A stretch of DNA of 64,000 nucleotides, from assembly GCF_964355755.1 (NCBI RefSeq), contig NC_092672.1, positions 3,534,001 through 3,598,000 of the forward strand. Direction: 5' to 3'. The notes beneath the pieces are model-generated. The model had not been told where the DNA came from. It made no database searches and saw only the letters and a program-made list of their open reading frames with translations. Below, piece after piece: positions 15,901 through 64,000 of the stretch (position 1 is its first letter; the number at the start of each line of letters is the position of its first letter). Origin of the DNA: Antedon mediterranea. Its lineage: Eukaryota; Animalia; Echinodermata. The translations under genes were made by a program, and so were the position numbers.

Positions 15901-15929
15901 GGTTAAATCATAGATGATTTGGGTGGGAG

Positions 15930-16422
15930 TATAACTGCAGCCTACTTATAGGAGGCCCTCTAAAGTTCAAATAGATAAAAAGTGATAAGAGAGAATAAGA
16001 CATTTTTTATGACATAAAGTTTAGAGATAATCATTGTTCAAAGTATCTTTACCATAGGCTCCAATAAGGCTACAAGGTATTTACACATGGTTATTCATGT
16101 GATTGTAATTATAACTTATGACTTGTATTTTTAATTAGTTGAGTTTTACTTCATTGCTGAAAGCTAGCCCTCTAGGCTTTAGGGTATCATGTTCCCCAGC
16201 CCCATGAGTCAGACCTGTGCTTGTCTGCCTGTACGATGATGATATGATTAGGCCTACATTGTAATGCTAATCTTTGTTTTATTATAGTTTTCACGGTGTT
16301 TATTCAAGTTGCTAATGATACTGTAATTTGTAGAGATACAAGAGATAGTTCAGAGAATAAATAAAGGAACATCAGTATCTACAAAATTTGTAATTTATTT
16401 ATGATGGACGCCTACGGAAACA
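15930..16422 (+). repeat. 3' LTR of the BEL/Pao element
   Basis: TATAACTGCAGCC...GCCTACGGAAACA followed by the TSD CTCAC. Confidence 0.95.
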
Positions 16423-19900: not shown

Positions 19901-21432
19901 TTGCACCGTCCTCATGATGACTCGGCATTATCACATCTTTACCGTCCTCATGATGACTCAGCATTATCGCATCTTTGCACCGTCCTCATGATGACTCAGC
20001 ATTATCACATCTTTGCACCGTCCTCATGATGACTCAGCATTATCACATCTTTACCGTCCTCATATGATGACTCAGCATTATCACATCTTTGTACCGTCCT
20101 CATGATGACTCAGCATTATCACATCTTTGCACCGTCCTCATGATGACTCAGCATTATCACATCTTTGCACCGTCCTCATGATGACTCAGCATTATCACAT
20201 CTTTGCACCGTTCCTCATGTTGACTCAGCATTATCACATCTTTGCACCGTCCTCATGATGACTCAGCATTATCACATCTTTGCACCGTCCTCATGATGAC
20301 TCAGCATTATCGCATCTTTGCACCGTCCTCATGATGACTCAGCATTATCGCATCTTTGCACAGTCCTCATGATGACTCAGCATTATCGCATCTTTGCACC
20401 GTCCTCATATGATGACTCAGCATTATCGCATCTTTGCACCGTCCTCATGATGACTCAGCATTATCGCATCTTTGCACCGTCCTCATGATGACTCAGCATT
20501 ATCGCATCTTTGCACCGTCCTCATGATGACTCAGCATTATCGCATCTTTGCACCGTCCTCGTGATGACTCAGCATTATCACATCTTTGCACCGTCCTCAT
20601 GATGACTCAGCATTATCACATCTTTGCACCGTCCTCATGATGACTCAGCATTATCACATATTTGCACCGTCCTCATGATGACACAGCATCATATCTTTGT
20701 ACCATCCGCGTGATGACTCAGCATTATCACATCTTTGCACCGTCCTCATGATGACACAGCATCATATCTTTGTACCGTCCTCGTGATGACTCAGCATTAT
20801 CGCATCTTTGCACCGTCCTCATGATGACTCAGCATTATCACATCTTTGCACCGTCTTCATGATGACTCAGCATTATCACATCTTTGTACCGTCCTCATGA
20901 TGATTCAGCATTATCACATCTTTACACCGTCCTCATGATGACTCAGCATTATCACATCTTTGCACCGTCCTCATGATGACTCAGCATTATCACATCTTTG
21001 CACCGTCCTCATGATGACTCAGCATTATCACATCTTTACACCGTCCTCAGGATGACTCAGCATTATCACATCTTTACACCGTCCTCATGATGACTCAGCA
21101 TTATCACATCTTTGCACCGTCCTCATATGATGACTCAGCAGTATCACATCTTTGTACCGTACTCATGATGACTCAGCATTATCACATCTTTGCACCGTCC
21201 TCATGATGACTCAGCATTATCACATCTTTGCAACTTCCTCATGATGACTCAGCATTATCGCATCTTTGTACCGTCCTCATGATGACTCAGCATTATCACA
21301 TCTTTGCACCGTCCTCATGATGACTCAGCATTATCACATCTTTGCAACGTCCTCATGATGACTCAGCATTATCGCATCTTTACACCGTCCTCATGATGAC
21401 TCAGCATTATCGCATCTTTGCACCGTCCTCAT
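16963..21432. repeat. 38-bp tandem satellite, ~117 copies; nearly every unit contains ATGACTCAGCA
   Basis: Unit ATCTTTGCACCGTCCTCATGATGACTCAGCATTATC(A/G)C. Period of 38 checked at 17581/17619. Units abut with no unique spacers. Confidence 0.98.
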
Positions 21433-27449: not shown

Positions 27450-27850
27450 GAAGATAGTGGAGAGAGCAGCTGCAAAGAGGAAGCTGGAGAAGATGGTCAT
27501 TCATCAAGGTCAGTTTTGTCTTTCACACCTCCTTAAAAACCCTCCTGGGGTGTTTATTCATATGTTAAATTAATCATATTGTTTTACTTCTACAGTAGGC
27601 CTAGTATGCAAACTTCTAGGCATTGATTGTTCTCATTCATTTGAAAAATTCATTATCCTATTTTGTTTTTAGGTAAATTAAAAGGTAGTAAAACTATGGT
27701 GAGAGACTCAAAAGCTGTGATGGATCCCATGGAACTACTAAAAGTTTTACGCTCCACTGATCATTCCAGTAAAGGAGAATGAAGCGTTTAAGGTTCTGGA
27801 ATCCTGCGATGAGAATGTCATGGAGTTAAAGATCTCAGCGAGAGAATGAT
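27450..27850 (+). pseudogene. HELLS: HELLS/LSH 3' pseudogene fragment, copy A (partial exon, intron, last exon with internal deletion)
   Basis: [19 protein letters not shown] followed by a GT..AG intron, then GKLKGSKTMVRDSKAVMDPMELLK. About 110 bp present in copy B (54552-54662) are missing at ~27765. Confidence 0.85.
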
Positions 27851-28073
27851 AACTAACCTGTCTTCAACAATCTATTGTAAGTTTGATCTCTGCATATTCA
27901 TTAAATTTTCCATCAAGATATCTACATCAAATCCATGGCTCCTGGCTTTAAATTTACTACAGTACTGGGTTCACATACTGTGTATAGCCAATATTGCACA
28001 AATTGAAATCTGGGATCGTTAATGGTATTTATGACATTTATTTCTATGCAAGTAGTTACTGTTGTTTTCTGCA

Positions 28074-28952
28074 CAGCACAGTGTTCAGGTTTAAACTATT
28101 GTTAACACCAAGTGTTATTACAAGTCAGCACAGTGTTCAGGTTTAAACTATTGTTAACACCAAGTGTTATTACAAGTCTGCACAGTGTTCAGGTTTAAAC
28201 TATTGTTAACACCAAGTGTTATTACAAGTCAGCACAGTGTTCAGGTTTAAACTATTGTTAACACCAAGTGTTATTACAAGTCAGCACAGTGTTCAGGTTT
28301 AAACTATTGTTAACACCAAGTGTTATTACAAGTCAGCACAGTGTTCAGGTTTAAACTATTGTTAACACCAAGTGTTATTACAAGTCAGCACAGTGTTCAG
28401 GTTTAAACTATTGTTAACAACAAGTGTTATTACAAGTCAGCACAGTGTTCAGGTTTAAACTATTGTTAACACCAAGTGTTATTACAAGTCAGCACAGTGT
28501 TCAGGTTTAAACTATTTTTAACACCAAGTGTTATTACAAGTCAGCACAGTGTTCAGGTTTAAACTATTGTTAACACCAAGTGTTATTACAAGTCAGCACA
28601 GTGTTCAGGTTTAAACTATTGTTAACACCAAGTGTTATTACAAGTCAACACAGTGTTCAGGTTTAAACTATTGTTAACACCAAGTGTTGTTACAAGTCAG
28701 CACAGTGTTCAGGTTTAAACTATTGTTAACACCAAGTGTTATTACAAGTCAGCACAGTGTTCAGGTTTAAACTATTGTTAACAACAAGTGTTATTACAAG
28801 TCAGCACAGTGTTCAGGTTTAAACTATTGTTAACACCAAGTGTTATTACAAGTCAGCACAGTGTTCAGGTTTAAACTATTGTTAACATCAAGTGTTATTA
28901 CAAGTCAGCACAGTGTTCAGGTTTAAACTATTGTTAACACCAAGTGTTATTA
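28074..28952. repeat. 52-bp tandem repeat, ~17 copies
   Basis: Unit CAGCACAGTGTTCAGGTTTAAACTATTGTTAACACCAAGTGTTATTACAAGT; period checked at 28081/28133. Confidence 0.97.
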
Positions 28953-29891
28953 CTCTTACAACATAAAGAAAATCAAAGACTGTACACAAATATATCTTAT
29001 GTAAAACTTTTAATATAATACAAATAGTGATAACAAAAATCCATAACTTATCAACTTTAAATGTATTTTATACAGAATTATATTTCACTATTTCTACATC
29101 ATATAGAAAAAATATTTCAACATCAATATATTTAAAAACACACCAATGAAATATATAATGTCTTCATTGTTTGATTTTTGTCATTTTTAGTTTTACAAAT
29201 TCTACTACAACTTTGTTCTGCTGTTGTTACTGTGCAAAGACATCTCATAATGTGTTTATTTGTTAATATAATTTCTAATTACGTTTTCATTTAATAAAAC
29301 TGCTTTTGATAACAAATTACGTTTCATCATTATCTTCATGTTATGTTTTGTAGTTTCAAGTTGTACCACTTTACTTTTAGTATTTAACCAGCCAACCTAA
29401 TTATAAAGAGTTGTATTAATTACATTTAAAATAATATTATCACATAATTACTTTAAAACACGCACAACCAAATCTATACAATATATCAAGTAAAAAACAT
29501 TGCATTATTATAAAAGAATAATTTTCATTAAATATGTCAGCACAGCTTATAAAGATTATAATGAATAAGAAACAAACATTCTTGTTTATCTGCATGCTAC
29601 AGCTGTTAATAATGATTACTTCCGTTGCTAGTGTGCCGCGTGCGGAAGTACGCGCGCGCGCTCCGTCGATGAAGGTAAGTATGTCAAAATAAATTTTATG
29701 TTTTAGATTATCATATTGATTTATTCTACTATACGATTTTTATATAAAAGGTCAATTTTTTATATTGAATACAAATTTAATGTTTGAAATGCAATTATTT
29801 GCGATATTAAAAATTAACACCTGCTTGCTGCGAGATTTAAAAATGTGTTTGTTATATAGTAGAAGTAACATACGTTATCAGTGAAAACTAA

Positions 29892-31837
29892 CTAATGATA
29901 AAAATTAATATTTCTCTTTGAACACTCTTCAGCCACGTGTTCGATGACTTTAGCTGATAGATTGCAATCCCTCATGTAAAGCCTCCACAGCTTAGGAGAC
30001 GTAATGAGAAATGAAGACAATGAATTAACATCAATGTTGTCAAGGTTGTTACGAGAGATATCCAGATATTCTAATTCTAATTGAACTTGATTGAGAGAAC
30101 ATTCTGATACAAAGTCATTAAATACATCACGTGATAGATTCCGAATCCAAACATATTCACATTTATCTACAATGCCTAAAATGTGTGCAATAACTCTTCC
30201 CTTTCGCTCCAATGTCATCTTACTAAAAAAGTCACCGATACTATAATCATAATATTGCATACAATACAATTGCATAATTAGACGTATGAAATGCCCATCA
30301 CATTGCACACCTGGACTAATGTAATCAATAAACATTCTTATGGAGGTAGATATATTATTTATTTCTAAATCTTTGCTTGTCATGTGATTAATTAATTCAT
30401 TAACCACAGCATCTTCGTGTTCTTTTTTAACAAAGTTAAAATTTCTCGGCAGATAGCGATATGTTGACAAACTATTTGTAACCCAGTGCTTTAGGAAACC
30501 GCCGGCTTTATCACCAAGGAAACCAATTGCAAACTCTCTCGCTCTGTATAAATGCCTCCTCTCTCCTATAACCTCCCACTCATCATCATCCAATGGTGTA
30601 AGTAATGTTCGTACATCTGAGCACCACTCATTCTCCATACCTTCACTTTCACATAATTTGCACAAGTAAAATCCCACCAATGACTCTACTATCAACTTGT
30701 GAGGAGGCATAAAAATAATTTCAAAATTCGATTTTAAAATCGGTGCTACTTCATAAACAAATCCAAGTTTTACGGACATGTCAACTAAATCTTTATTCGA
30801 ATGTTTATCATTCAAATCTTTCATGTTTATTGAAAGTCGATTTACTTTCAAGCTATCATACATACATTTTCCCAACAAAATCATAGCATTTACAAACTTT
30901 GCTGGTGTGTCTTCAAATTTAGAAAGCTTTGCGAATTGTTCTTGTTTGTTGAACTGATTCAAAATACTTCGAAATATTTCTTTAAAAAGTTCACCTTTAT
31001 CTGTAGGAAGGCTTTGACTGTCTTCCCACAGCAAACAGATTGAAAAAAGCAGCATTGGATTTTTGCACATTGCATACGCTTCAGGATGTTTTTTCTCAGC
31101 CCAATAAGTGTCAATATCCAATTCGTTTCGAAGGGATTTTCCCAATTCTAGTTTTCCAAAATGTTTGTCAATGTACTTTCCTATGCTCTCGTTATTAAAT
31201 CCCCTAACTCTTACATGTACGTTACTCTCTTTTACAAATTCGTCTATGTTTTCTGATCGTGAAGTAAGTATCACAGCACTGTTTTCTAAGTTGTTCTTTT
31301 TGAACAGACTTATTACGCTTTGATTATTAAATCTCAATTCGTCTAATCCGTCTAAGAAAAATACCAATTTATCGTCATGGGTTATTAGAAAATCTTGAAT
31401 TAACTCTGAATTTCGTGGAAGTTTTGTGTGCCTGCTAAATTCTTTCATATCAGTTTGCTTTACAATTAGATCAATGATGTCATCATCTTTGTCTAAATCC
31501 CGTACACTTAAAAGAAATACAATTTTACCTTTAAATGATTTCATTAATTGAGTAGCCGTAGCCCAGTTGTATGACAAATGCCTTAATATGGAAGTTTTAC
31601 CTATCCCACCCTCGCCATCAATAAGAGCTCTACATCCAGGTGTGAGTACATCAACCACATCTGGTAATGTTGCTGGTTTGTAGCCTTCATTCTGGTCACC
31701 TTCTTTCAGTAGTTCGATATCGGTAAACATCTGTGAAATGTCAACTTTGTATCTACCACGCATTGTTTCTGGTGTAAATTTACTGGCCTGGAAACACAAT
31801 TTCTTTTGTCTTTGAAGCAGATATTCTTTAATTTTTT
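29892..31837 (-). CDS. NLR gene A, last exon: NACHT NTPase, winged-helix/HD2 region and 2-3 LRRs (spliced gene 35142-29892, ~882 aa)
   Basis: Walker A GEGGIGKT, Walker B FFLDGLDE, sensor-1 ILTSR, VRGF, NPMLL and PHKLIVE motifs. LRRs LEYLDISRNNL and LWRLYMRDCNL. The AG acceptor at 31839-31838 gives a phase-1 in-frame join. Confidence 0.92.
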
Positions 31838-31917
31838 CTGATGAGAAAAAAAATAAGAAAATATGCCAAGAAAGATATTTGATTTAAGTTAATTTTAATT
31901 AATAAAGGCCTACAATT

Positions 31918-32510
31918 TCTTCCGTGAGCGGCCACCTCCATTGACGACCGCACTTTCAAAGCATGTTTGTTCTTCCTATCTAATTAGTGCAGTTGGTACC
32001 TCTCGTAAGCGGTCACCTACCGTAAACGGCCGCGGCCACTGTTTTTTTTACTAAAAATGAATTTTTTGTATGGCAAATTACCTCCCGTACACGACCACCC
32101 GAAAATTTCGTATTTACTTTTGACAAAAATACAATTTTGATACTTATATATTGTGCGCTATATATTATTAGCTTTATTTCAAAGCGGATTTAAAAACATT
32201 TCTGTGAAGAACATTCTTGTGTTTTTTAGATGAGATGAGAAAACTACACAGATTTTGACCGACCATTTTCATAATTATGATAAAAGCTTTTAAAATTTGT
32301 TTGAAAATCATAAATAATACTAAACCACCTGATAATAAACAATAAAATACAATTAATAGTTGGAGAATTTAGAGGCTCGTTGCGTTAAGAACGCCGAAAA
32401 TATCGTGCATAGTCATAATACGTGATTTTAGCCTTCTATCTGCAGAACCTAGAATTGTAAGCGGTCACCTCCCGTAAGCGTCTTCTTTTCCTGGTCCCGA
32501 GACTGTAATG
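31918..32510. mobile_element. Degenerate MITE-like relic in the NLR intron (also at ~58520-59095)
   Basis: GC-richer repeated motif AGCGG(T/C)CACCT(C/A)CCGTAA, of the kind seen in Tc1/mariner-pogo MITE subtermini. It is shared by both duplicates. Boundaries are approximate. Confidence 0.35.
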
Positions 32511-33457
32511 CAAATTGTGTATAAATTAAAGCCGAAGTACACTCAAGTAAATTATATAGAGGGCAAAAAACTATATTCAATAAAAAACGAAGAAAACTGA
32601 AACAACTGGATCCGCACCGATATTGTAGCCGTTAAGTAGCAATCCACCGCTTATATAGTAAACCTCATATGTCGGGCGTGCTGCTGGTGTTGATTTTGTA
32701 TTTACTACATAAGCTGTGTTTCTACATTAGCTGGAGGTAAAGCGGATATTTTACATTTACGGTTTCACGACATTAGCGGTTATGTGACGCATGAATTAAT
32801 TTTGTTTGTAGGTGAATTAAAAGCTAAATTGTAGTATAAGAAATTAAAGATTTTTCAGGTATATAGTATACAGTATTCAGTATTCAGTAATCCAACTTTT
32901 GCTTATACGACAGCAATAACAAATAATATTAACATATATTATATGCATTTAAGTTATTAGGTTAAAAGGCCATTTGTTACAGAGGACGTTTATGATTGAA
33001 ACTAAACTCACAATTATCTACGTCATAATTACATTCATTAATGATCATCCACAATATTGTATGCCACAAATAGATAAATTAATACTGTACAGTAAAGAGA
33101 TTATAGAGGGCGGCAAACAAAATATATCATTAATCAGAACGAAACTTGATTGTAACTACTACAGAGTACACCAGCATGAAATAGTACGGTGAATTACTAT
33201 TTTCGAATTTGATTAGAAACTTTTTTTATAGAGACATTTATTTTCAAATTAATTATGATTAAATGAGCAAAATTAAAGTAAGACAATGTGATTTTGTTTG
33301 GTAAACATTTCTTCAAACATAAATTATATCTATCTAAACCCATTAAACTCAGTTTTACTTAATATACTTTCTAAATAGGAAATTTATTTTTTTCTGATAT
33401 TAATTTTTTAAATACCATATTATTATGTAATGCGTTCATATAACTAAAGTAACTCAC

Positions 33458-33589
33458 TTGAATCTGATTTTTTCAAGCCCAATCTTTCGCGAGTGATAAC
33501 AAACCAAGATTTTCTGTTTCCTCGTGAGGCAGAGTCTTTATATTCTCTTCGCTTTCCTTGTTCTTCTTGAGTCGTCGACACTTCCTCAT
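33458..33589 (-). CDS. NLR gene A linker exon (132 nt, phase 1-1)
   Basis: AG acceptor at 33591-33590 and GTGAGT donor at 33457. Reads DEEVSTTQEEQGKRREYKDSASRGNRKSWFVITRERLGLKKSDS and is conserved in copy B. Confidence 0.8.
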
Positions 33590-34245
33590 CTGTTTAAGGA
33601 AAAATAACTAATTCTATCTTTTCTGAATATATTTTATTTGGAAAACATTATTAATATTATTACAATGCTGATTAACAATTTTAAGCATTGTTTTTACCAA
33701 ATTAATATGAATGTAATCATGTTAACTATTTATTTAGGTTTGTTCACGGCTAGATAATATCATGTTGTTAATGCATAAGAATGTTTTATTGTTACAGAAA
33801 CTTCGTTTTTCCATTGATTGTAGTATAGGCGGAATTATAGAGGGCGGCAAACACAATTTTTAATCTATCAGGGGTTATCTAAATATGCTCAACAGAGGGC
33901 AGCAAACAGAAAAATAAACATTTTCAGAGCCGTACACCGTGTAGTGGCGATTGTCTTGAAATACTAATAAAACATAAATATTTACTCTGAAAATCTAACT
34001 TTTTAGTAGACCTATTTTTATTTGTATTCAATAAACAAACTTTGCAATGCGGATTAGAATTAAGCTTATTGGATCTCAAAGAATAATATTATGTGTAAAA
34101 CGGTCTTACTTATTATGGTGTTAACAATTCGTTTTTTAAACAATGAAGCTTCCTAATTATTATATCCTTCTACATACATGTGGTCAGGATTGGAATTAAA
34201 CATCAAAAAGGATTTTGTTTAAATATTATTCTGAAAGCAACAAAC

Positions 34246-34305
34246 CTGTTTCTGATGTACCCTCTTTTCGAATTCCTTGTTCTTCATTACTTGTTGCCAC
34301 TTGCC
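34246..34305 (-). CDS. NLR gene A linker micro-exon (60 nt, phase 1-1)
   Basis: AACAG acceptor and GTTTG donor. Reads GQVATSNEEQGIRKEGTSET and is homologous to the three micro-exons of copy B. Confidence 0.75.
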
Positions 34306-34631
34306 CTGTTTAAATAATAAAATAATAATAACAACAACAAATGAAAAGACAATTATTCTACCTAAAAATCTACCGATTGTTTGGGAGCAAAATACGGTAC
34401 ATTTTTAGTAAACTATCCTGTTTCTGATTTAACCTCTTAATAGGCCTATTGTGTACTGTATAATTATGTAAATCAAATATTTAAAAACCCGTTTTATAAT
34501 AATTTGTTTAATGAACTTCGTTATAAATTAGGCCTACAGTTAAATACACATTTCAAAATTACGTATTTAGGTTCCATTTAAATCAAATGATCTCAAGTAA
34601 GTGTTTTATGCATAATAATGTGGTGATCTAC

Positions 34632-35142
34632 CTTTTAGAAAACTTTGTGCATGTTGGTTTATAAGCTTTGCAAAAGTGTCACGGTCGTCTTGAGATTTCA
34701 AGCGTCCGGCTTTCTCAATGTGATATACAACATCCCATATATTCTTATAGTTGTAGGCACTCAGTTTGTAGAAACCAATAACCGTCATCAAATCGTCGTT
34801 GTCAGTGTTAGTTAGCACATTAAACATTGCTCTGCGATATGCTGTTAATCCTACACCTGCTGTATCGCTACTTTGGATAGTGTTCTTATATGTGTCTATG
34901 CGTTTTGTTGCTGGGGCCATCATGGTTACTTCAGCAATGTCCGACAACAGCTTCACATCAGTTTTGGAAATCAATCCACGGTCAGTCAGTTGATTAAATA
35001 AATCTAGGACTGATTTTACATCAAGAGTTCCAATGGGTATAATACCAAATAGAAGCATTCTCAGCCATCGCAGGTTTACACCAGAATAGTATTCACTAAG
35101 TTCTCTCAGAAATGTTTGGAATTCTACATCTTTTTCATCCAT
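34632..35142 (-). CDS. NLR gene A first coding exon: tandem death-effector-domain (DED)-like module
   Basis: F..FL.ELS..L..LRMLL..IP...L...SVLDLF.QL..RGLIS..DV.LL is a DED pattern. A second repeat reads YRRAMF..L..DDL..IWDV..IEK.G.L. The acceptor TTTACAG lies 7 nt upstream of the ATG and the donor AAG|GTAGAT at 34631 is phase 1. Confidence 0.85.
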
Positions 35143-35329
35143 TTTGATTCTGTAAAGAATAATAATAATAAATTTAATTTTGTCGAATTTTTCTTATTGA
35201 TTTTAGCAACTTTGACAGAAATATTGATTAAGTAAATAGTAAAGCAAAACATACATATTATTAGTAGACAAAGAAAGATAAAAACATAAACAATTAAGTC
35301 GGTGTTTCTCACTTACAAAATAGAAACAA

Positions 35330-35980
35330 ATCTAGATCACTTACATTAACTATGAACAATGTTTCCACTGATGACGTCAGGCCTTAACAGTTTAATGTTC
35401 TTTCACTTTAAAGTTCCATCTGTTATAATGTTCCCTTAAGTTGCAACAGCTATGTTCCCTTTACATCAGATCTGTGATTGTGAACAATTCACATTAGTTT
35501 ACCAGTGAGTGGTGCAGGACTGAATTGTTTTCTCACTTTAAAGCAGAGTCGGCTAACTATTAAAAGCCGGATCAACTTAATCGTGATCACCTTAAGGATT
35601 TTGTCTAAGTTCAATGATGAGCGACATGAAATGAACAAACAACAACGTTTTCAAGTCCTATTTCATGAGTAGGCCGTAGAAGCTAACACCACAATAATAA
35701 TATAAGAATTCTAGGTTCTTGATTTTAATATTTCATCATAAAGGAAGTACCGGCTTCCTTTGTGCATTCATGCATGGCGTGATTTTGAATAATTTGTCAC
35801 TCAAAAAAACACATGATTTGTTAGTTCATAACTTCGTAATAACAGTTTACCATTATATAGCCACCACCAGGTAGGCTTGCTTCATCAACGTCTATGAATG
35901 GATGACTAGTTGGGAGCAGGAACGCTAGTAGATCAAACCCAGTACCGTTTTTGATTGCGATCATGCGGGAAATTACCTCA
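35330..35980 (-). promoter_or_regulatory. Putative 5' UTR exon/promoter region of NLR gene A with CRE, IRF-like and kB-like motifs
   Basis: GTAAGT donor-like sites near 35315 and 35344; TGACGTCA at 35372-35379; AAAGTGAAAG on the minus strand at 35400-35409; GGGAAATTACC at 35967-35977. These are motif matches only. Confidence 0.3.
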
Positions 35981-36323
35981 CGACGCTAAATTTAATAGTT
36001 TATGTAAATGTTTGTCCTTTTTTTAATGTCACTTTTCTACACATGTACGGAACAAATTGTATTTTGTTGGCCTATTATAAAGTGCTATAACTTAAATTAA
36101 ATGCTTAAACAGACACACTGTGTAGGCGCGGATGCTGAAACCTCTGAACATTTCGTCATGTCAAAGGTCAAATGAACAACAATAATGTACGATTTTGATT
36201 CAAGCACACAACAACTTATCGTACACTATCAACATAAATATGTATATCTTTAGCATCGAGTGACTAACAGACAGACTACTGTGGGTAGTCGTCGAGTGCA
36301 GCTTGTTGTTGTAGTGCGTCAAT

Positions 36324-36831
36324 AGGGAGGTTTCGCAACCTTACGAATACGATAACGAAAACGGATACGTCATACATTTGTGAAACTTTTGAGCTGATCC
36401 CCATTTCATATCCGTAAAGCGTATTCGTGTTGACGAATATCACCAGTCATATTCGTAACTACAAAACGAGTATAGTTTTTGATCTATTTTTGCACATTTT
36501 GCATTTGAATCAGGAATGATTCATGATTATAATATAATTATAGATTTATTGAAAGTAATTTACTAAAGTAATTTACTAAAATGCCAAATCAATTTTGATA
36601 AATAGCAGTTTTTAAAGTCCTCACTCGCTTTGATGTTACGGTAGGCCTAGGCAGCCAAGCACCAAGCAACACGTACCTTCGCTTCACTCAAATTTACCGC
36701 AGTCATATTTTGGACGTGCCTCAATATTTCGTTGCCATGCGAAACAGATTTGTGTATGGCTTACGAAAACAATACGTGTGCGTGACGTATCCGTTTTCGT
36801 TATCGTATTCGTAGCGTTGCGAAACCTCCCT
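36324..36831. mobile_element. MITE with ~50-bp TIRs and 3-bp AAT TSD (PIF/Harbinger-ISL2EU group-like)
   Basis: AGGGAGGTTTCGCAAC.TACGAATACGATAACGAAAACGGATACGTCA, with its inverted copy ending at 36831. AAT flanks at 36321-36323 and 36832-36834. Confidence 0.85.
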
Positions 36832-36990
36832 AATATCCTTGCATTTCGACTGTTACAACATTCTACGCAGATTTTGAAGCAGGAAACATTGATCAAAGAT
36901 GTACTCATTCTTGCTGAAAACATCGATATTTTAGGTAAAAATGATGAATTTCGATTCTCTAACATTTTGATTCAAAAACTACATCGTAAA

Positions 36991-37023
36991 ATGATGATGA
37001 TGATGATGATGACGATGATGATA

Positions 37024-37064
<41 letters not shown>

Positions 37065-37097
37065 AATGACGATGATAATGATGATGATGATGATGAT
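36991..37097. repeat. (ATG)n microsatellite, ~35 units
   Basis: Direct reading. The paralogous position (~47028-47040) has only about 4 units. Confidence 0.97.
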
Positions 37098-37289
37098 ACA
37101 CATGGATATCAACAATGCATAATTTGTGTTTCCACGAAAGAGTGACGAGATTGCAAAGTAAAGAGTGGATACTGACGTCACATTATGTTTTTTAGAAACT
37201 TCAGTAAATGAAGGACCTTTAAACATGATTTGTGGCAGTTGTACAGTGTATTATTTTGATATTAAAGTTTTTATTAAAGTCAAATGATC

Positions 37290-40200
37290 TATGCTTGCAA
37301 TCTGTATCATAGTCTACACATTGTATTCGCTGTGTAATCATAATATGATATGTGATTGCAATCTGTATCATAGTCTACATTGTATTCGCTGTGTAATCAT
37401 AATATGATATGTGATTGCAATCTGTATCATAGTCTACATTGTATTCGCTGTGTAATCATAATATGATATGTGATTGCAATCTGTATCATAGTCTACATTG
37501 TATTCGCTGTGTAATCATAATATGATATGTGATTGCAATCTGTATCATAGTCTACATTGTATTTCGCTGTGTAATCATAATATGATATGTGATTGCAATC
37601 TGTATCATAGTCTACATTGTATTCGCTGTGTAATCATAATACGATCTATGATTGCAATCTGTATCATAGTCTACATTGTATTCGCTGTGTAATCATAATA
37701 TGATATGTGATAGCAATCTGTATCATAGTCTACATTGTATTCGCTGTGTAATCATAATATGATATGTGATAGCAATCTGTATCATAGTCCACATTGTATT
37801 CGCTGTGTAATCATAATATGATATGTGATTGCAATCTGTATCATAGTCTACATTGTATTCGCTGTGTAATCATAATATGATCTATGATTGCAATCTGTAT
37901 CGATAGTCTACATTGTATTCGCTGTGTAATCATAATATGATATGTGATTGCAATCTGTATCATAGTCTACATTGTATTCGCTGTGTAATCATAATATGAT
38001 ATGTGATTGCAATCTGTATCGATAGTCTACATTGTATTCGCTGTGTAATCATAATATGATATGTGATTGCAATCTGTATCATAGTCCACATTGTATTCGC
38101 TGTGTAATCATAATATGATATGTGATTGCAATCTGTATCATAGTCTACATTGTATTCGCTGTGTAATCATAATATGATATGTGATAGCAATCTGTATCAT
38201 AGTCTACATTGTATTCGCTGTGTAATCATAATATGATATGTGATTGCAATCTGTATCATAGTCTACATTGTATTCGCTGTGTAATCATAATATGATATGT
38301 GATAGCAATCTGTATCATAGTCCACATTGTATTCGCTGTGTAATCATAATATGATCTATGATTGCAATCTGTATCATAGTCTACATTGTATTCGCTGTGT
38401 AATCATAATATGATATGTGATAGCAATCTGTATCATAGTCTACATTGTATTCGCTGTGTAATCATAATATGATATGTGATTGCAATCTGTATCATAGTCT
38501 ACATTGTATTCGCTGTGTAATCATAATATGATATGTGATAGCAATCTGTATCATAGTCTACATTGTATTCGCTGTGTAATCATAATATGATATGTGATAG
38601 CAATCTGTATCATAGTCTACATTGTATTCGCTGTGTAATCATAATATGATATGTGATTGCAATCTGTATCATAGTCCACATTGTATTCGCTGTGTAATCA
38701 TAATATGATATGTGATTGCAATCTGTATCATAGTCTACATTGTATTCGCTGTGTAATCATAATATGATATGTGATTGCAATCTGTATCATAGTCTACATT
38801 GTATTCGCTGTGTAATCATAATATGATATGTGATTGCAATCTGTATCATAGTCTACATTGTATTCGCTGTGTAATCATAATATGATATGTGATTGCAATC
38901 TGTATCATAGTCCACATTGTATTCGCTGTGTAATCATAATATGATATGTGATTGCAATCTGTATCATAGTCTACATTGTATTCGCTGTGTAATCATAATA
39001 TGATATGTGATAGCAATCTGTATCATAGTCTACATTGTATTCGCTGTGTAATCATAAAATGATATGTGATAGCAATCTGTATCATAGTCTACATTGTATT
39101 CGCTGTGTAATCATAATATGATATGTGATTGCAATCTGTATCATAGTCTACATTGTATTCGCTGTGTAATCATAATATGATATGTGATTGCAATCTGTAT
39201 CATAGTCCACATTGTATTCGCTGTGTAATCATAATATGATATGTGATTGCAATCTGTATCATAGTCTACATTGTATTCGCTGTGTAATCATAATATGATA
39301 TGTGATTGCAATCTGTATCATAGTCTACATTGTATTCGCTGTGTAATCATAATATGATATGTGATTGCAATCTGTATCATAGTCTACATTGTATTCGCTG
39401 TGTAATCATAATATGATATGTGATAGCAATCTGTATCATAGTCTACATTGTATTCGCTGTGTAATCATAATATGATATGTGATTGCAATCTGTATCATAG
39501 TCTACATTGTATTCGCTGTGTAATCATAATATGATATGTGATAGCAATCTGTATCATAGTCTACATTGTATTCGCTGTGTAATCATAATATGATATGTGA
39601 TAGCAATCTGTATCATAGTCTACATTGTATTCGCTGTGTAATCATAATATGATATGTGATTGCAATCTGTATCATAGTCCACATTGTATTCGCTGTGTAA
39701 TCATAATATGATATGTGATAGCAATCTGTATCATAGTCTACATTGTATTCGCTGTGTAATCATAATATGATATGTGATTGCAATCTGTATCATAGTCTAC
39801 ATTGTATTCGCTGTGTAATCATAATATGATATGTGATTGCAATCTGTATCATAGTCTACATTGTATTCGCTGTGTAATCATAATATGATATGTGATTGCA
39901 ATCTGTATCATAGTCTACATTGTATTCGCTGTGTAATCATAATATGATATGTGATAGCAATCTGTATCATAGTCCACATTGTAATCGCTGTGTAATCATA
40001 ATATGATATGTGATAGCAATCTGTATCATAGTCTACATTGTATTCGCTGTGTAATCATAATATGATATGTGATTGCAATCTGTATCATAGTCTACATTGT
40101 ATTCGCTGTGTAATCATAATATGATATGTGATTGCAATCTGTATCATAGTCTACATTGTATTCGCTGTGTAATCATAATATGATATGTGATTGCAATCTG

Positions 40201-43200
40201 TATCATAGTCTACATTGTATTCGCTGTGTAATCATAATATGATATGTGATAGCAATCTGTATCATAGTCTACATTGTATTCGCTGTGTAATCATAATATG
40301 ATATGTGATAGCAATCTGTATCATAGTCTACATTGTATTCGCTGTGTAATCATAATATGATATGTGATTGCAATCTGTATCATAGTCTACATTGTATTCG
40401 CTGTGTAATCATAATATGATATGTGATTGCAATCTGTATCATAGTCTACATTGTATTCGCTGTGTAATCATAATATGATATGTGATAGCAATCTGTATCA
40501 TAGTCTACATTGTATTCGCTGTGTAATCATAATATGATATGTGATAGCAATCTGTATCATAGTCCACATTGTATTCGCTGTGTAATCATAATATGATATG
40601 TGATTGCAATCTGTATCATAGTCTACATTGTATTCGCTGTGTAATCATAATATGATATGTGATAGCAATCTGTATCATAGTCTACATTGTAATCGCTGTG
40701 TAATCATAATATGATATGTGATTGCAATCTGTATCATAGTCTACATTGTATTCGCTGTGTAATCATAATATGATATGTGATTGCAATCTGTATCATAGTC
40801 CACATTGTAATCGCTGTGTAATCATAATATGATATGTGATAGCAATCTGTATCATAGTCTACATTGTATTCGCTGTGTAATCATAATATGATATGTGATT
40901 GCAATCTGTATCATAGTCTACATTGTATTCGCTGTGTAATCATAATATGATATGTGATAGCAATCTGTATCATAGTCTACATTGTATTCGCTGTGTAATC
41001 ATAATATGATATGTGATAGCAATCTGTATCATAGTCCACATTGTATTCGCTGTGTAATCATAATATGATATGTGATAGCAATCTGTATCATAGTCTACAT
41101 TGTATTCGCTGTGTAATCATAATATGATATGTGATTGCAATCTGTATCATAGTCTACATTGTATTCGCTGTGTAATCATAATATGATATGTGATAGCAAT
41201 CTGTATCATAGTCTACATTGTATTCGCTGTGTAATCATAATATGATATGTGATAGCAATCTGTATCATAGTCCACATTGTATTCGCTGTGTAATCATAAT
41301 ATGATATGTGATTGCAATCTGTATCATAGTCCACATTGTAATCGCTGTGTAATCATAATATGATATGTGATAGCAATCTGTATCATAGTCTACATTGTAT
41401 TCGCTGTGTAATCATAATATGATATGTGATTGCAATCTGTATCATAGTCTACATTGTATTCGCTGTGTAATCATAATATGATATGTGATAGCAATCTGTA
41501 TCATAGTCTACATTGTATTCGCTGTGTAATCATAATATGATATATGATTGCAATCTGTATCATAGTCTACATTGTATTCGCTGTGTAATCATAATATGAT
41601 ATGTGATTGCAATCTGTATCATAGTCTACATTGTATTCGCTGTGTAATCATAATATGATATGTGATTGCAATCTGTATCATAGTCTACATTGTATTCGCT
41701 GTGTAATCATAATATGATCTATGATTGCAATCTGTATCATAGTCTACATTGTATTCGCTGTGTAATCATAATATGATATGTGATTGCAATCTGTATCATA
41801 GTCTACATTGTATTCGCTGTGTAATCATAATATGATATGTGATTGCAATCTGTATCATAGTCCACATTGTATTCGCTGTGTAATCATAATATGATATGTG
41901 ATTGCAATCTGTATCATAGTCTACATTGTATTCGCTGTGTAATCATAATATGATCTATGATTGCAATCTGTATCATAGTCTACATTGTATTCGCTGTGTA
42001 ATCATAATATGATATGTGATTGCAATCTGTATCATAGTCTACATTGTATTCGCTGTGTAATCATAATATGATATGTGATTGCAATCTGTATCATAGTCCA
42101 CATTGTATTCGCTGTGTAATCATAATATGATATGTGATTGCAATCTGTATCATAGTCCACATTGTATTCGCTGTGTAATCATAATATGATATGTGATTGC
42201 AATCTGTATCATAGTCTACATTGTATTCGCTGTGTAATCATAATATGATATGTGATTGCAATCTGTATCATAGTCCACATTGTATTCGCTGTGTAATCAT
42301 AATATGATATGTGATTGCAATCTGTATCATAGTCTACATTGTATTCGCTGTGTAATCATAATATGATATGTGATTGCAATCTGTATCATAGTCTACATTG
42401 TATTCGCTGTGTAATCATAATATGATATGTGATTGCAATCTGTATCATAGTCTACATTGTATTCGCTGTGTAATCATAATATGATATGTGATAGCAATCT
42501 GTATCATAGTCTACATTGTATTCGCTGTGTAATCATAATATGATATGTGATAGCAATCTGTATCATAGTCCACATTGTATTCGCTGTGTAATCATAATAT
42601 GATATGTGATTGCAATCTGTATCATAGTCTACATTGTATTCGCTGTGTAATCATAATATGATATGTGATTGCAATCTGTATCATAGTCCACATTGTATTC
42701 GCTGTGTAATCATAATATGATATGTGATAGCAATCTGTATCATAGTCTACATTGTATTCGCTGTGTAATCATAATATGATATATGATTGCAATCTGTATC
42801 ATAGTCCACATTGTATTCGCTGTGTAATCATAATATGATATATGATTGCAATCTGTATCATAGTCTACATTGTATTCGCTGTGTAATCATAATATGATAT
42901 GTGATTGCAATCTGTATCATAGTCTACATTGTAATCGCTGTGTAATCATAATATGATATGTGATTGCAATCTGTATCATAGTCCACATTGTAATCGCTGT
43001 GTAATCATAATATGATATGTGATTGCAATCTGTATCATAGTCCACATTGTATTCGCTGTGTAATCATAATATGATATGTGATTGCAATCTGTATCATAGT
43101 CTACATTGTAATCGCTGTGTAATCATAATATGATATGTGATAGCAATCTGTATCATAGTCTACATTGTATTCGCTGTGTAATCATAATATGATATATGAT

Positions 43201-45600
43201 TGCAATCTGTATCATAGTCTACATTGTATTCGCTGTGTAATCATAATATGATATGTGATAGCAATCTGTATCATAGTCCACATTGTAATCGCTGTGTAAT
43301 CATAATATGATATGTGATAGCAATCTGTATCATAGTCTACATTGTATTCGCTGTGTAATCATAATATGATATGTGATTGCAATCTGTATCATAGTCTACA
43401 TTGTATTCGCTGTGTAATCATAAAATGATATGTGATAGCAATCTGTATCATAGTCTACATTGTATTCGCTGTGTAATCATAATATGATATGTGATAGCAA
43501 TCTGTATCATAGTCTACATTGTATTCGCTGTGTAATCATAATATGATATGTGATTGCAATCTGTATCATAGTCTACATTGTATTCGCTGTGTAATCATAA
43601 TATGATATGTGATAGCAATCTGTATCATAGTCCACATTGTAATCGCTGTGTAATCATAATATGATATGTGATAGCAATCTGTATCATAGTCTACATTGTA
43701 TTCGCTGTGTAATCATAATATGATATGTGATTGCAATCTGTATCATAGTCTACATTGTATTCGCTGTGTAATCATAATATGATATGTGATTGCAATCTGT
43801 ATCATAGTCTACATTGTATTCGCTGTGTAATCATAATATGATATGTGATTGCAATCTGTATCATAGTCTACATTGTATTCGCTGTGTAATCATAATATGA
43901 TATGTGATAGCAATCTGTATCATAGTCTACATTGTATTCGCTGTGTAATCATAATATGATATGTGATAGCAATCTGTATCATAGTCTACATTGTATTCGC
44001 TGTGTAATCATAATATGATATGTGATTGCAATCTGTATCATAGTCTACATTGTATTCGCTGTGTAATCATAATATGATATGTGATTGCAATCTGTATCAT
44101 AGTCTACATTGTATTCGCTGTGTAATCATAATATGATATGTGATAGCAATCTGTATCATAGTCTACATTGTATTCGCTGTGTAATCATAATATGATATGT
44201 GATAGCAATCTGTATCATAGTCCACATTGTATTCGCTGTGTAATCATAATATGATATGTGATTGCAATCTGTATCATAGTCTACATTGTATTCGCTGTGT
44301 AATCATAATATGATATGTGATAGCAATCTGTATCATAGTCTACATTGTAATCGCTGTGTAATCATAATATGATATGTGATTGCAATCTGTATCATAGTCT
44401 ACATTGTATTCGCTGTGTAATCATAATATGATATGTGATTGCAATCTGTATCATAGTCCACATTGTAATCGCTGTGTAATCATAATATGATATGTGATAG
44501 CAATCTGTATCATAGTCTACATTGTATTCGCTGTGTAATCATAATATGATATGTGATTGCAATCTGTATCATAGTCTACATTGTATTCGCTGTGTAATCA
44601 TAATATGATATGTGATAGCAATCTGTATCATAGTCTACATTGTATTCGCTGTGTAATCATAATATGATATGTGATAGCAATCTGTATCATAGTCCACATT
44701 GTATTCGCTGTGTAATCATAATATGATATGTGATAGCAATCTGTATCATAGTCTACATTGTATTCGCTGTGTAATCATAATATGATATGTGATTGCAATC
44801 TGTATCATAGTCTACATTGTATTCGCTGTGTAATCATAATATGATATGTGATAGCAATCTGTATCATAGTCTACATTGTATTCGCTGTGTAATCATAATA
44901 TGATATGTGATAGCAATCTGTATCATAGTCCACATTGTATTCGCTGTGTAATCATAATATGATATGTGATTGCAATCTGTATCATAGTCCACATTGTAAT
45001 CGCTGTGTAATCATAATATGATATGTGATAGCAATCTGTATCATAGTCTACATTGTATTCGCTGTGTAATCATAATATGATATGTGATTGCAATCTGTAT
45101 CATAGTCTACATTGTATTCGCTGTGTAATCATAATATGATATGTGATAGCAATCTGTATCATAGTCTACATTGTATTCGCTGTGTAATCATAATATGATA
45201 TATGATTGCAATCTGTATCATAGTCTACATTGTATTCGCTGTGTAATCATAATATGATATGTGATTGCAATCTGTATCATAGTCTACATTGTATTCGCTG
45301 TGTAATCATAATATGATATGTGATTGCAATCTGTATCATAGTCTACATTGTATTCGCTGTGTAATCATAATATGATATGTGATAGCAATCTGTATCATAG
45401 TCTACATTGTATTCGCTGTGTAATCATAATATGATATATGATTGCAATCTGTATCATAGTCTACATTGTATTCGCTGTGTAATCATAATATGATATGTGA
45501 TAGCAATCTGTATCATAGTCTACATTGTATTCGCTGTGTAATCATAATATGATATGTGATTGCAATCTGTATCATAGTCTACATTGTATTTCGCTGTGTG
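37290..45600. repeat. 59-bp tandem satellite, ~141 copies
   Basis: Unit TGA(T)(T/A)GCAATCTGTATCATAGTC(T/C)ACATTGTATTCGCTGTGTAATCATAATATGATATG; period checked at 37321/37380. Confidence 0.98.
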
Positions 45601-45992
45601 AATCGTTATTGAGTTGTTTTTCTTCTCGTTACGTCACAATGTGTTCTTGTTACGAGCACGCTATAAGGAAGTTATCAAAACGATCTCCCTTCCGATCTCT
45701 TTCCTTATAAATCCAAACTGGCAGAATGTTGTCTTTTTGGTGAAGGAAATAAAACTAATATTTAAAAGAAAAATGAAACAAATTCCAAGATCAGAACTTC
45801 AGATTATTATTACATCTCACGCATAGAGGCCTATCATAACATAAGAAAGTTAAGCACAATATTATCTTATAGCCATCTTGTTTATAATAGATAACATTTC
45901 TCAACTTAATTGTTTTCTGATTTACTTGTTTACAACAGTGTTTATAAGAATAAATGTGCAATAAAATATTCTATTTATCAATATTTTCCTAA

Positions 45993-53414: not shown

Positions 53415-54749
53415 TTGTCTTCATCTTCTCACAGCAGGATGGCAGTGAGTGACATACGTGAAGATTATAGCTGCTACACACAAACAATGGAGTTATTAAA
53501 TACCTCCACCACGACCATGTAGGTCTCTACCTCCATGTACAGAGACAGAACTACTGTCGTCTAGATGGCTGTTGACAGGTATAAGCACTCATGGATACAG
53601 AGTAAAGAAACAGCTAACTTTTGCCAATTTGTAAATGTAAATTATAGTTAATGCACAATTATAAATGGCCAGTTAATATAGACATTTCATTCATTCTGAT
53701 TTTATCAGCAACTAGGTCTACTGCATGCTGTATTAATTATTACGTTTCTGGTTTTTTTTTTAAGAATGAGTGCAAGAATGTTTTTACTGATAGACAACAT
53801 CAACTTGACAACAGCTGACACAGTCACTATATGAGACATTGATTGGGTAAGTTAAATAAATAATTACTACATTTTATTACAGCGTGATCAATAATCTGCC
53901 ATACAATTTACACACAGAGTGCAATATGCTTTTTTGCTGCGCACTTTTTGCACTCAAGTGCATAATAGAGTGACAAAATAAAGAGCGCACACATGACTCA
54001 TTTCAGCGCGTCTGATTGGCTACATCCTTGAACCCATGTTATAATAATTAGTCACAAGCTTGTGGTGTAATGTTTGTTTTAGTGTAGTGACTTTCAATAC
54101 ATTGTAAAGTAGCATTTATAGCTGTATTATAGAATCCACAGTCAGATCTACAAGCCCAAGATTGATGCCAGAGAATTGGTCAAGAAAAGCCAGTGATTGT
54201 CTACAGGTTAGTGACCATTAACACCATGGACCAGAAGATAGTGGAGAGAGCAGCTGCAAAGAGGAAGCTGGAGAAGATGATCATTCATCAAGGTCAGTTT
54301 TGTCTTTCACACCTCCCTAAAACCTAAAAACCCTCCTGAACAATAAACGCCCGGGGTGTTTATTCATATAAATACGTTAAATTAATCATATTGTTTTATA
54401 TACTTCTACTGCAGTATGCATTGATTGTTTTCATTCATTTCATTATCTTATTTTCTTTTTAGGTAAATTCAAAGGCAGTAAAACTATGGTGAGAGACTCA
54501 AAAGCTGTGATGGATCCCATGGAACTACTGAAAGTGTTACGCTCCACTGATTGCTCTGGCATTATCAAAAACTGTAAAGAACAAGTCATCAGTGACGCAG
54601 ATCTTGAGCTCCTATTGGATCACAGCGACCTTGTTGGGAATAACGTGGGAAAGAAATTGAAACCAGTAAAGGAGAATGAAGCGTTTAAGGTTCTGGAATC
54701 CTGCGATGAGAATGTCATGGAGTTAAAGATCTCAGCTAGAGAAGGATAA
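53415..54749 (+). pseudogene. HELLS: HELLS/LSH (SNF2 helicase) unprocessed 3' pseudogene fragment, copy B, ~4 exons
   Basis: Exon relics VFIFSQ..NYCRLDG and INLTTADTVTI*DIDW|gtaagt. Exon 54133-54292 reads [52 protein letters not shown], with TGA at 54163-54165 in place of the conserved Arg. The last exon 54463-54749 has VISDADLELLLDHSDL. These match the HELLS C-terminus. Confidence 0.92.
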
Positions 54750-54944
54750 CTAACCTGTCTCAACAATCTATTGCTTTTCATTATATTCTCCATCAAGATA
54801 TCCACATCAAATCCATGGCTCCTGGCTTTAAATTTACTACAGTACTGGGTTCACATACCCAATATTGCACAAATTGAAATCTGGGATTGTTAATGGTATT
54901 TATGACATTTATTTCTATGCAAGTAGTTACTGTTATTTTCTGCA

Positions 54945-56433: not shown

Positions 56434-58442
56434 CTAATAAAGATGATCAAATGTAATATTTCTTATTGAACACTTTTCAGACACGTGACGAATGTCGTCA
56501 GCTGATAGATTGCAATCAATCATGTTAAGGTACCACAGCTTAGGACACATAATGAGAAATGAAGACAATGAATTAACATCAATGTTGTGAAGGTTACTAC
56601 GAGAGATAAGGAGAGTACGTAATGCTAATTGAACTTGTTTGAGAGAACATTCTGATACAAAGTCATGAAATACATCACGTGATAGATTCTTAATCCAAAC
56701 AACGACACATTTATCTTGAATGCCTAAAATGTGTGCAATAACTCTTCCCTTTCGCTCCAATGCCATCTTACTACAAAAGGCATAGACACTATCATCATCA
56801 TATTGCATACAATACAATTGCATAATTAGACGTATGAAATGCCCGTCACATTGTACACCTGGACTAATGTAATCAATAAACATTCTTATGGAGGTAGATA
56901 TATCATCCAAATGATTATTTATTTCTAAATCTTTGCTTGTCATGTAATTAATTAATTCATTTACCACAGCATCTTTATGTTGTTTTTTAACAAAGTTTAA
57001 ATTTCTCGGCAGATTGCGATATGTTGACAAACGATCTGTAACCCAATGCTTGAGGAAACCGCCAGCTTTATCACCAAGGAAACCAATTGCAAACTCTCTC
57101 GCTCTGTATAAATGCTTACTCTCTCGTATCACCTCCCACTCATCATCATCCAATGGTGTAAGTAATTTTCGTACATCTGAGCACTCATTCTCCATACCTT
57201 CACTTTCACATAATTTGCACAAGTAAAATCCTACCAATGACTCTACTATTAATTTGTGAGGAGGCATATAAATGTTATCAAATTTAGATTTTGAAATTGG
57301 CGCTTCTTCGTAAACGAACCCGATTTTTAAGGCCATATCAACCATATCTTTGTTCGAATGTTCAGTCAAATCCGTTTTGTTTATTGAAAGTTGGTTTACT
57401 TTTAAGCTATCATACATAAATTTCCCTAATAAAATCATAGCATTTACATACTTCACTGGTGTTTTATCAAATTCAGAAATCTTTGTTATTTTTTCTCGTT
57501 TGTTGAACTGATTCAAAATACTACGAAAGAGTTCTTTGAAGAGGTCAGTTTTATTTTCGGGGAGACTTTGATTATCTTCCCACAATATACAGAGTGAAAG
57601 AAGTAGCATCGGGTTTTTGCACATTGCATACGCTTCAGGATGTTTTAGCTCTCGCTCTCTTCTAATAAGCTGGATAAAAGACGTAGGCCTAACTGTTTCA
57701 AGATGCGTGTCAATATCTAATTCCTTTTTAAGGGATTTTCCCAATTCTGGTTTTTCAAAATAATCAAAATGTTTGTCAATGTATTTTCCTATGCTCTCGT
57801 CATTAAATCCCCTAACCCTTACATGTACGTTACTCTCTTTTACAAATTCGTATATGTTTTCTGATCGTGAAGTAAGTATCACTGTACTTTTCTCTAAATA
57901 CTCATTTCTGAACAGACTAATTACGCTTGGATTATTAAATCTCAATTCATCTAACCCATCTAACAACAACACTAGGTTGTCTTTATGGGTCTTTAGAACA
58001 TTTTGAAATGACACTTTTTTAATAATTTGTGTACACCTACTGAAATCTTTCATATCAATTTCCTTTACAATCATATCCAAGATGTCGTCATCTTGTTCTA
58101 AATCTCTTAAACTTAAAAGAAATACAATTTTACCTTTAAATACTTTTGATTGCCCAGTAGCCCAATTGTATGATAAATGCCTTAATATGGTAGATTTACC
58201 TATCCCACCCTCGCCATCTATAAGAGCTCTACATCCAGGTGTGGAGCTGATAACATCTACCACTTCTGTTAATGTTATTTGCTTGCTTCCTTGATTGTTT
58301 TCAGTTTCCTTCAGTAGTTCCATATCGGTAAACATCTGTGAAATGTCAACTGTGTATCTACCATGCATTGTTGCTGGTGTAAATCTACTGGCCTGGCTAC
58401 ACAATTTCTTTTGTCTTTGAAGCAGGTATTCTTTAAATTTTT
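56434..58442 (-). CDS. NLR gene B, last exon: NACHT NTPase, winged-helix/HD2 region and 2-3 LRRs
   Basis: GEGGIGKS, LLLDGLDE, ILTSR, NPMLL and PHKLIVE motifs. LRRs LRTLLISRSNL and LWYLNMIDCNL. The acceptor at 58444-58443 is in frame (phase 1). Confidence 0.92.
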
Positions 58443-59995: not shown

Positions 59996-60127
59996 TTGAG
60001 TCTGATTTTTTCAAGCCCAATCTTTCGAGAACGATAACAAACCAAGATTTTCTGTTTCCTCGTGAGGCAGAGTCTTTATATTCTCTTCGCTTTCCTTGTT
60101 CTTCTTGAGTCGTCGACACTTCCTCAT
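59996..60127 (-). CDS. NLR gene B linker exon (132 nt, phase 1-1)
   Basis: Near-identical to 33458-33589 with the same splice sites. Confidence 0.8.
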
Positions 60128-63029: not shown

Positions 63030-63445
63030 CTGTTTCTGATTTACCCTCTTTTCGAATTCCTTGTTTTTCATTACTACTGGTTGCCGCTTGCCCTGTTTAA
63101 ATAATAAAATAATAAGAATAAGAACAAAAAAAAAATAAAAATACTTACTTATTCTACCTTAAAAAAACTACCGATTGAGAGCAAAATTATACTTATTAGT
63201 AACTAACCTGTTTCTGATTTAACTCCTTTTCGCATTGCTTGTTCATCATTACTACTGGTTGCCACTTGACCTGTTTTAAGAATCAAATAATAAGAAAAAA
63301 AATTAGAAATCAATTATTATCATTCTACCTAAAAAACTAGCGATTGAGAGCAAAATTATACCGTACATTATTAGTAACTAACCTGTTTCTGATTTAACTT
63401 CTTTTGGCATTCCTTGTTCTTCATTACTACTGGTTGCCACGTGAC
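63030..63445 (-). CDS. NLR gene B: three tandem 63-nt phase 1-1 linker micro-exons (63383-63445, 63208-63270, 63030-63092)
   Basis: Each is flanked by AACAG and GTTAGT. Peptides: GHVATSSNEEQGMPKEVKSET, GQVATSSNDEQAMRKGVKSET and GQAATSSNEKQGIRKEGKSET. The exon-plus-intron unit repeats every ~176 bp. Confidence 0.8.
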
Positions 63446-63693: not shown

Positions 63694-64000
63694 CTTCAGT
63701 CAGAGATGTTACTCTTGCTTCCAGTCCAACTTGTCTTAAATTGTTAATGAATTCTTCAATTTTTTCTTCACAGATTATTTTTCTCTGTTCCAAATCCAGA
63801 ATCATACTCCAGGCATCTTTATAATTCTTTAACGCACTACCATTGTACAATGCATCAATTCTGTCCACATCAGCCTGTCTAAGTCCATTTCCGAAAGCTA
63901 CAATTTGTATTCGATATCGAGTGAACTTAGTAATTTCTTGGTTTTCAAGAAAAGAATGTTTGAGAAGAGCGATGACACCAAACTGTTCAGTTACTTTTAT
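63694..64000 (-). CDS. NLR gene B N-terminal DED-like exon (partial, continues beyond the window)
   Basis: Open frame IKVTEQFGV...KFTRYRIQIVAFGNGLRQADVDRIDALY..NYKDAWSMILDLEQRKII..FINNL, ending at the donor GAAG|GTATGT (phase 1). It has a DED-like pattern only distantly similar to the second repeat of gene A. Confidence 0.75.

Follow-up and report, generated by a model that had tools for sequence, protein, structure and literature searches.

Surveys of invertebrate NLRs describe, in the portions of text available, effector types that are independent of NACHT phylogeny, with death-fold heads swapped in lineage-specific expansions (PMC3879445; PMC2858798). In zebrafish, NLR-B30.2 genes combine one large NACHT exon with short N-terminal peptide repeats, each encoded by a single exon, and have undergone exon shuffling between members as well as partial gene conversion (bioRxiv 10.1101/027151). 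DED-NACHT genes are known from amphioxus, where death-fold domains are promiscuous, and from sea urchin (PMC2575513), DED-bearing NLRs also from sea cucumber (PMC8913654), and fungal NLRs have variable heads (PMC4986451). Exons shuffled in lancelets show a bias towards phase 1-1 (PMC4284660), and in the lophotrochozoan RLRs sibling paralogs have gained a single-exon DED and other heads (PMC8998645). Each of these sources was available in part, and our comparisons refer to that part. We found no publication on crinoid NLRs or on the cluster described here in the literature searched, which covered few subscription journals and did not extend to supplements.

Here we describe a 64,000-nt stretch of AT-rich animal DNA (the window) that contains two NACHT genes, A and B, both on the minus strand and with satellites between them (Table 1). 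Their closest database relatives are from the feather star Antedon mediterranea, followed by Anneissia japonica. Database models P0007 and P0040 correspond to gene B and P0046 to exons 1-3 of gene A; for the other family members, of which only a part is sampled, automatic protein models are the sole source. Pfam detects NACHT in both genes over the curated cut-off (E 4.7e-19 for A and 8.6e-20 for B), along with one weak LRR_1 match under the cut-off in A (E 0.0069) and none in B. Paralogs of the two genes carry several copies of the same terminal LRR unit.

The surroundings are rich in repeats. A non-LTR element ORF with endonuclease/reverse transcriptase occupies positions 1-1907 and is truncated by the window start, and a DUF1759 ORF of 1055 aa lies between 491-nt direct repeats of 99% identity (12417-16422), likely a young LTR retrotransposon. 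Satellites with units of 38 nt (117 copies) and 59 nt (141 copies) occur, with arrays at 16964-21432, 37284-45604, 28074-28953 and 54945-55460, and a 52-nt array found downstream of A and of B belongs to the duplicated unit. A short plus-strand segment downstream of B (54381-54749) is coding-like and has a partial homolog downstream of A (27450-27761); neither has a Pfam match. An intron of B contains, without a counterpart in A, a 2.3-kb near-perfect foldback element (60454-62769) with 19-nt terminal inverted repeats and 530-nt arms that are 98% identical.

Table 1. Coordinates of gene A and gene B features in the window.
Feature	Position	Strand	Remarks
Gene A NACHT exon	29892..31837	(-)	ends in a single LRR unit; frame open; mosaic of several paralog types
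Gene A linker-donor read-through to in-frame stop	33444..33457	(-)	translation equals P0046
Gene A linker exon	33458..33589	(-)	132 nt; phase 1-1; 97% identical to that of B
Gene A intact micro-exon	34246..34305	(-)	60 nt; phase 1-1; 20-aa linker repeat; in model P0046
Gene A micro-exon 3′ remnant	34418..34438	(-)	21 nt; donor reads GA, not GT; start of homology to B
Gene A intron part without homology to B	34439..34631	(-)	193 nt; taken to have arrived with the A-type head
Gene A head exon	34632..35149	(-)	A-type tandem DED; ATG at 35142; phase-1 donor; equals P0046 residues 1-170
Gene B NACHT exon	56434..58442	(-)	one terminal LRR unit
Gene B linker exon	59996..60127	(-)	
Gene B micro-exons	63030..63445	(-)	three, 63 nt each: 63383-63445, 63208-63270, 63030-63092
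Gene B head exon, 3′ part	63694..64000	(-)	B-type tandem DED cut by window end; matches P0040 residues 69-171

A preliminary description of this DNA had proposed that the two paralogs are colinear and alike through their introns up to position 34438, and the alignment agrees, with nucleotide identities of 86-97% by segment. Homology runs from ~27450 to 34438 in A and across 54234-63403 in B, apart from a 2.3-kb insertion in B, at 93.6% identity in the 3′ flank, 86.3% in the NACHT exon, 91.9% in the following intron, 97.0% in the linker exon and 91.1% in the next intron. We also confirmed the proposed position of its end: homology stops at 34438, within the 3′ remnant of a micro-exon (34418-34438), and the remnant is followed by GA at 34417-16 where the equivalent site in B has GT. 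The intron behind the remnant is homologous to the introns between B's micro-exons. Gene A has one intact 60-nt micro-exon plus the remnant, gene B has three of 63 nt, and the count varies from 1 to 4 between loci. On the far side of the junction, no alignment between A 34441-37280 and B 63441-64000 was better than E 0.016, the value of a 43-nt AT-rich A/B match near 35172 that we rejected as chance.

Short-read contigs bear on how this junction arose. A 305-nt contig covers 34350-34654 with 0 differences in runs X1 and X4, which derive from one sample that is possibly the window's own, so the junction was not created by the assembly. A second, diverged contig over 34394-34499, with 4 substitutions and 8 gap letters, indicates that the junction is inherited and present in at least one further copy, and hence not unique to A. 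From a third organism comes a contig with the end of an A-type exon (the class of A's head, see below) and the homologous intron (34540-34730). Many X4/X5 contigs match solely the last 60-90 nt of the intron beside the A-type donor (34540-34631), and one 4098-nt X5 contig matches 34542-34665 with unlike sequence beyond; these contigs suggest more copies of the A-type exon in other contexts.

The head exons upstream of the junction fall into two classes, which we call A-type and B-type. They had been described as barely alignable, and this holds: BLASTP between the two exons gave a best E of 0.022, and A's head is 19% identical to the full B head (P0040) over 161 columns. B's exon, termed DED-like in the preliminary description, is cut by the window end; B's head is also a tandem DED, of which the in-window portion is the second half. 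For A's head, the fold check that the preliminary description had called for returned a predicted tandem DED with a pLDDT of 84, and this model matches the caspase-8/cFLIP tandem DED over its full length (TM about 0.73, best E 2.8e-4). The top Atlas matches of A's head are DED clusters (0.91-0.92). Its Pfam DED match, at E 7e-7, lies under the curated cut-off, and a PDB sequence search with it gave 0 matches.

In a head tree, which leaves out A-like modules scoring below 105 bits and 12 sequences that are isoforms or near-duplicates, the two classes split with full support. A-type heads are 88-90% identical at three loci (A, P0004/5 and P0035) and form one clade; P0004/5 is modelled with NACHT and P0035 without. 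Nearest to this clade, with support of 99/99, are the first modules of P0036, which has four DEDs and is 59% identical, and of P0049, in which A-type and B-type modules sit on a distant NACHT. B-type heads, by comparison, are carried by all close NLRs with a modelled head except A and P0004/5, by 7/7 Anneissia NLRs with a recognisable head, and by the outgroup bodies for which a DED head is modelled (P0003, P0015, P0018 and P0043). Their identity values span 56-90%, on bodies that are similarly old. In P0039, an isoform at the B locus, the linker and NACHT of B itself are preceded by a second B-type head (90% identical), an arrangement suggestive of alternative first exons for a single body. 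The related NACHT bodies P0011 and P0014 bear another N-terminus, a candidate third head class that has no Pfam match and resembles TIR by eye.

The bodies tell a different history from the heads. Both a 34-row quick tree and a 12-row careful tree place the bodies of A and P0004 among B-headed ones, inside the clade that these form, and an AU test on the 12 rows rejected the two as a clade of their own (p 0.0019). The 34-row tree is a quick search that omits P0033 and P0034 (short) and the isoforms P0005, P0007 and P0039. We set aside a second AU test (p 8e-35) that includes the outlier P0092, maybe not a NACHT, and P0024 was dropped because it had no P-loop match. Comparison of DED and NACHT trees, recommended in the preliminary description, therefore reveals incongruence. 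Its central proposal, that heads were exchanged on a common body, is upheld by these conflicting trees and by the P0004/P0005 model, in which an A-type head is followed by a NACHT body. Because the bodies recombine, the body trees violate the assumptions of the model.

This recombination is apparent along A's body, where the nearest relative is P0004 over residues 1-100 (82-88% identity, versus 66-80% for 6 others), P0008 over residues 101-175 (92-94%) and P0001 over residues 251-375 (86-94%). Mosaicism of the NACHT exon was significant in 33/75 triplet tests after Bonferroni correction, and A-B dS along this exon varies from 0.09 to 0.67 by segment. A's linker exon, by contrast with its likeness to that of B, is less similar to P0004's. 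From its sequence, the NACHT exon of A appears to be coding and under selection, with an open frame, a dN/dS of 0.47, and internal gaps in multiples of 3 in 8/8 cases as against 8/37 in the introns; a ninth gap, of 2 nt, is located at the stop codon. In the C-terminal/LRR segment at 29895-30245, an A-B dN/dS of 2.1 (45 non-synonymous and 6 synonymous differences) gives a hint of diversifying selection.

Exon phase allows a closer look at the head boundaries. The three coding junctions of A are all GT-AG and phase 1, and its four exons yield an open frame of 882 aa. The head holds the ATG, 7 nt past a likely acceptor, which makes it the first coding exon with phase 1 at the 3′ end only; those 7 nt would correspond to phase 2. 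The earlier statement that all junctions are phase 1 is thus correct downstream of the head and incorrect at its 5′ side, and the symmetrical phase-1 cassettes built on it do not describe A's head, which agrees with symmetric 1-1 shuffling at the 3′ boundary and departs from it at the 5′ boundary. A G-starting codon directly follows the head in 11/12 A-type and 12/12 B-type proteins (background 0.28), in a count where the rows are related, one alignment (P0003) is doubtful and phase is inferred from protein. The phase-1 3′ boundary appears to be conserved across architectures; such conservation would keep grafts viable and is no proof of a dedicated mechanism.

Both head classes also occur outside the NLRs. 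A B-type head that is 88% identical to gene B's is found on the ROCO protein P0042, encoded on a different contig, and another (61%) on a fibrinogen-domain protein. P0042 has a further, distant tandem DED near its C-terminus. A's head gave 66 library matches, and among the 28 scanned for partner domains, A-like modules accompany kinase, MAM, TRIM-NHL, COR/ZU5, GVIN-type GTPase, ubiquitin, TPR and a distant NACHT; 18/18 matches checked by name belong to the same species. The ROCO-type protein P0047 contains four long repeats with an A-like tandem DED in each. Algal ROCO genes have reportedly undergone exon shuffling (PMC11378527). With heads on ROCO, fibrinogen, kinase and other bodies, the tandem-DED exon is a promiscuous module of this genome, and its shuffling is not specific to NLRs.

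The DNA junction, the two head classes, the tree conflict and the NACHT-exon mosaic are best explained, with a probability of roughly 0.6, by a one-time 5′ graft of A's head from a four-DED lineage, followed by scrambling with B-headed neighbours through ectopic recombination or gene conversion. The B-type would be the ancestral head of this NLR clade, and a gene carrying both A-type and B-type modules would have supplied its first exon, attached at the first micro-exon or immediately ahead of it. The graft presumably worked because death-fold exons end in phase 1 and micro-exons offer in-frame, skippable landing sites. We infer that duplication then spread the chimera to three or more loci (A, P0004/5 and P0035), and later exchanges would have swapped body parts, so that genes sharing a head no longer share bodies. 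The succession of likeness from P0004 to P0008 to P0001 along A's body is as expected from one graft and later exchanges. At 59% identity, P0036 is the closest candidate donor, which implies that the actual donor is another gene. Since P0035 keeps four intact micro-exons after its A-type head, the remnant in A may mark where a later deletion ended rather than where the graft was joined.

Loss could produce a similar arrangement if an A-type exon once lay upstream of a B-type exon and a deletion then took out the latter along with the 5′ portion of the first micro-exon. The relatives of A's head in P0036 and P0049 do hold both modules in that order, and a deletion would account for the non-homologous intron that adjoins the micro-exon 3′ end. 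This route nevertheless takes two steps, no close B-headed NLR model has an A-type module upstream, the body of P0049 is distant, and tblastn of the window found no B-type remnant in A's region; we consider it unlikely. Somewhat less credible again is a dedicated modular system, in which heads are swapped repeatedly in the form of phase-1 cassettes and crossovers concentrate in the micro-exon array. The junction does fall in a micro-exon of an array whose number varies, the 3′ phase is apparently conserved, B-type heads diverge widely on similarly old bodies, and P0039 provides the model of a second B-type head at the B locus. However, the head of A, as the first coding exon, is no 1-1 cassette, and the junction is common to another copy, pointing to a single event. 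A crossover in a micro-exon would also depend on homology between the partners and ought to keep the exon whole, whereas in A a remnant adjoins non-homologous DNA. Nor are breakpoints confined to cassette borders, as dedicated exchange implies: they fall inside the single NACHT exon as well, which does not support a system aimed at exon borders. Very improbable, finally, is an assembly chimera. Many near-identical paralogs and long satellites make misjoins plausible, but the exact contig over the junction was recovered in two runs of one sample, a diverged copy has the junction too, and the independent models P0004/5 and P0035 contain the same head-linker join.

A further question is which product gene A makes. 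Tandem DEDs act in caspase-8/FLIP assemblies, and short FLIP proteins act as decoys; by analogy, the new head would be predicted to link an unchanged sensor with different DED partners, and a short form might serve as a decoy. P0046, the sole database model of gene A, is such a DED-only form, with 238 residues from exons 1-3 and a read-through of the linker donor to a stop before the NACHT exon. AATAAA begins at 33388 and 33242, about 56 and 200 nt past this stop, and P0035 is likewise modelled without NACHT, leaving 1 of 3 close A-headed loci modelled with it. No protein containing A's NACHT exon is among 34 database matches. In run X8, presumed to be RNA, contigs join micro-exon to linker exon and B-type head to micro-exon; no splice of the A-type head or from linker to NACHT is among the X8 matches listed, which is not evidence of absence. 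Gene A may therefore be made mainly as a DED-only short form. A stronger version, in which gene A acts mainly as a DED-only decoy or adaptor and its NACHT exon is seldom or never joined, seems to us doubtful, although it is the least remote of the alternatives considered. A's linker donor and NACHT acceptor have canonical sequences, and the orthologous junction is spliced in the model of B; A's NACHT frame is intact, with frame-keeping indels; AATAAA is frequent in such AT-rich introns, and the models are automatic predictions. The preliminary description had named DED exons unspliced to NACHT exons as a finding that would count against it, and this is partly what P0046 represents, whereas the P0004/P0005 model has the join. 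The DED-only reading is compatible with the graft history.

More broadly, a pool of mobile tandem-DED first exons might still be grafted onto NLR, ROCO, fibrinogen-domain and kinase bodies via micro-exon landing pads, with a splice switch between sensor and DED-only decoy in the grafted NLRs. We regard this extension as improbable, to about the same degree as the loss route. If true, a mobile-head pool combined with a splice switch would constitute a combinatorial wiring system for death-fold signalling.

Returning to the single graft followed by local exchange, the head tree is incongruent with the NACHT tree, as in the known N-terminal shuffling of NLRs, and the locus is a well-resolved new case of that published process. 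Since the general process is already in print, it is a good example for the specialist and no surprise. Its value lies in a junction visible in DNA, a likely donor lineage that can be named, and a swap between classes that Pfam labels alike. The cluster also allows micro-exon arrays to be tested as breakpoint magnets, and a change of head to be related to downstream partners.

Compared with described systems, the locus differs in several respects, as far as the available parts of the sources go. The invertebrate surveys argue N-terminal shuffling from domain labels on trees (PMC3879445; PMC2858798), whereas here both heads are tandem DEDs at 19% identity and the junction itself can be read. 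A Pfam-level survey would miss the A/B swap because both heads have the same fold, and surveys based on domain names would undercount head exchange generally because the two classes are labelled alike. In zebrafish NLR-B30.2 genes, the C-terminal B30.2 is the variable module that is stressed and conversion homogenises NACHT within groups (bioRxiv 10.1101/027151); in the feather star, a whole tandem-DED head comes from outside the clade and the NACHT exon is a patchwork. Unlike the symmetric internal exons of lancelets (PMC4284660), A's head is a first exon with phase 1 solely at its 3′ end. The RLR grafts concern another sensor family, and their gains are mostly assigned to exonization (PMC8998645). 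Lastly, the predicted fold of A's head matches the caspase-8/cFLIP tandem DED over its full length, yet identity is 17-18% and gene A is without a caspase domain.
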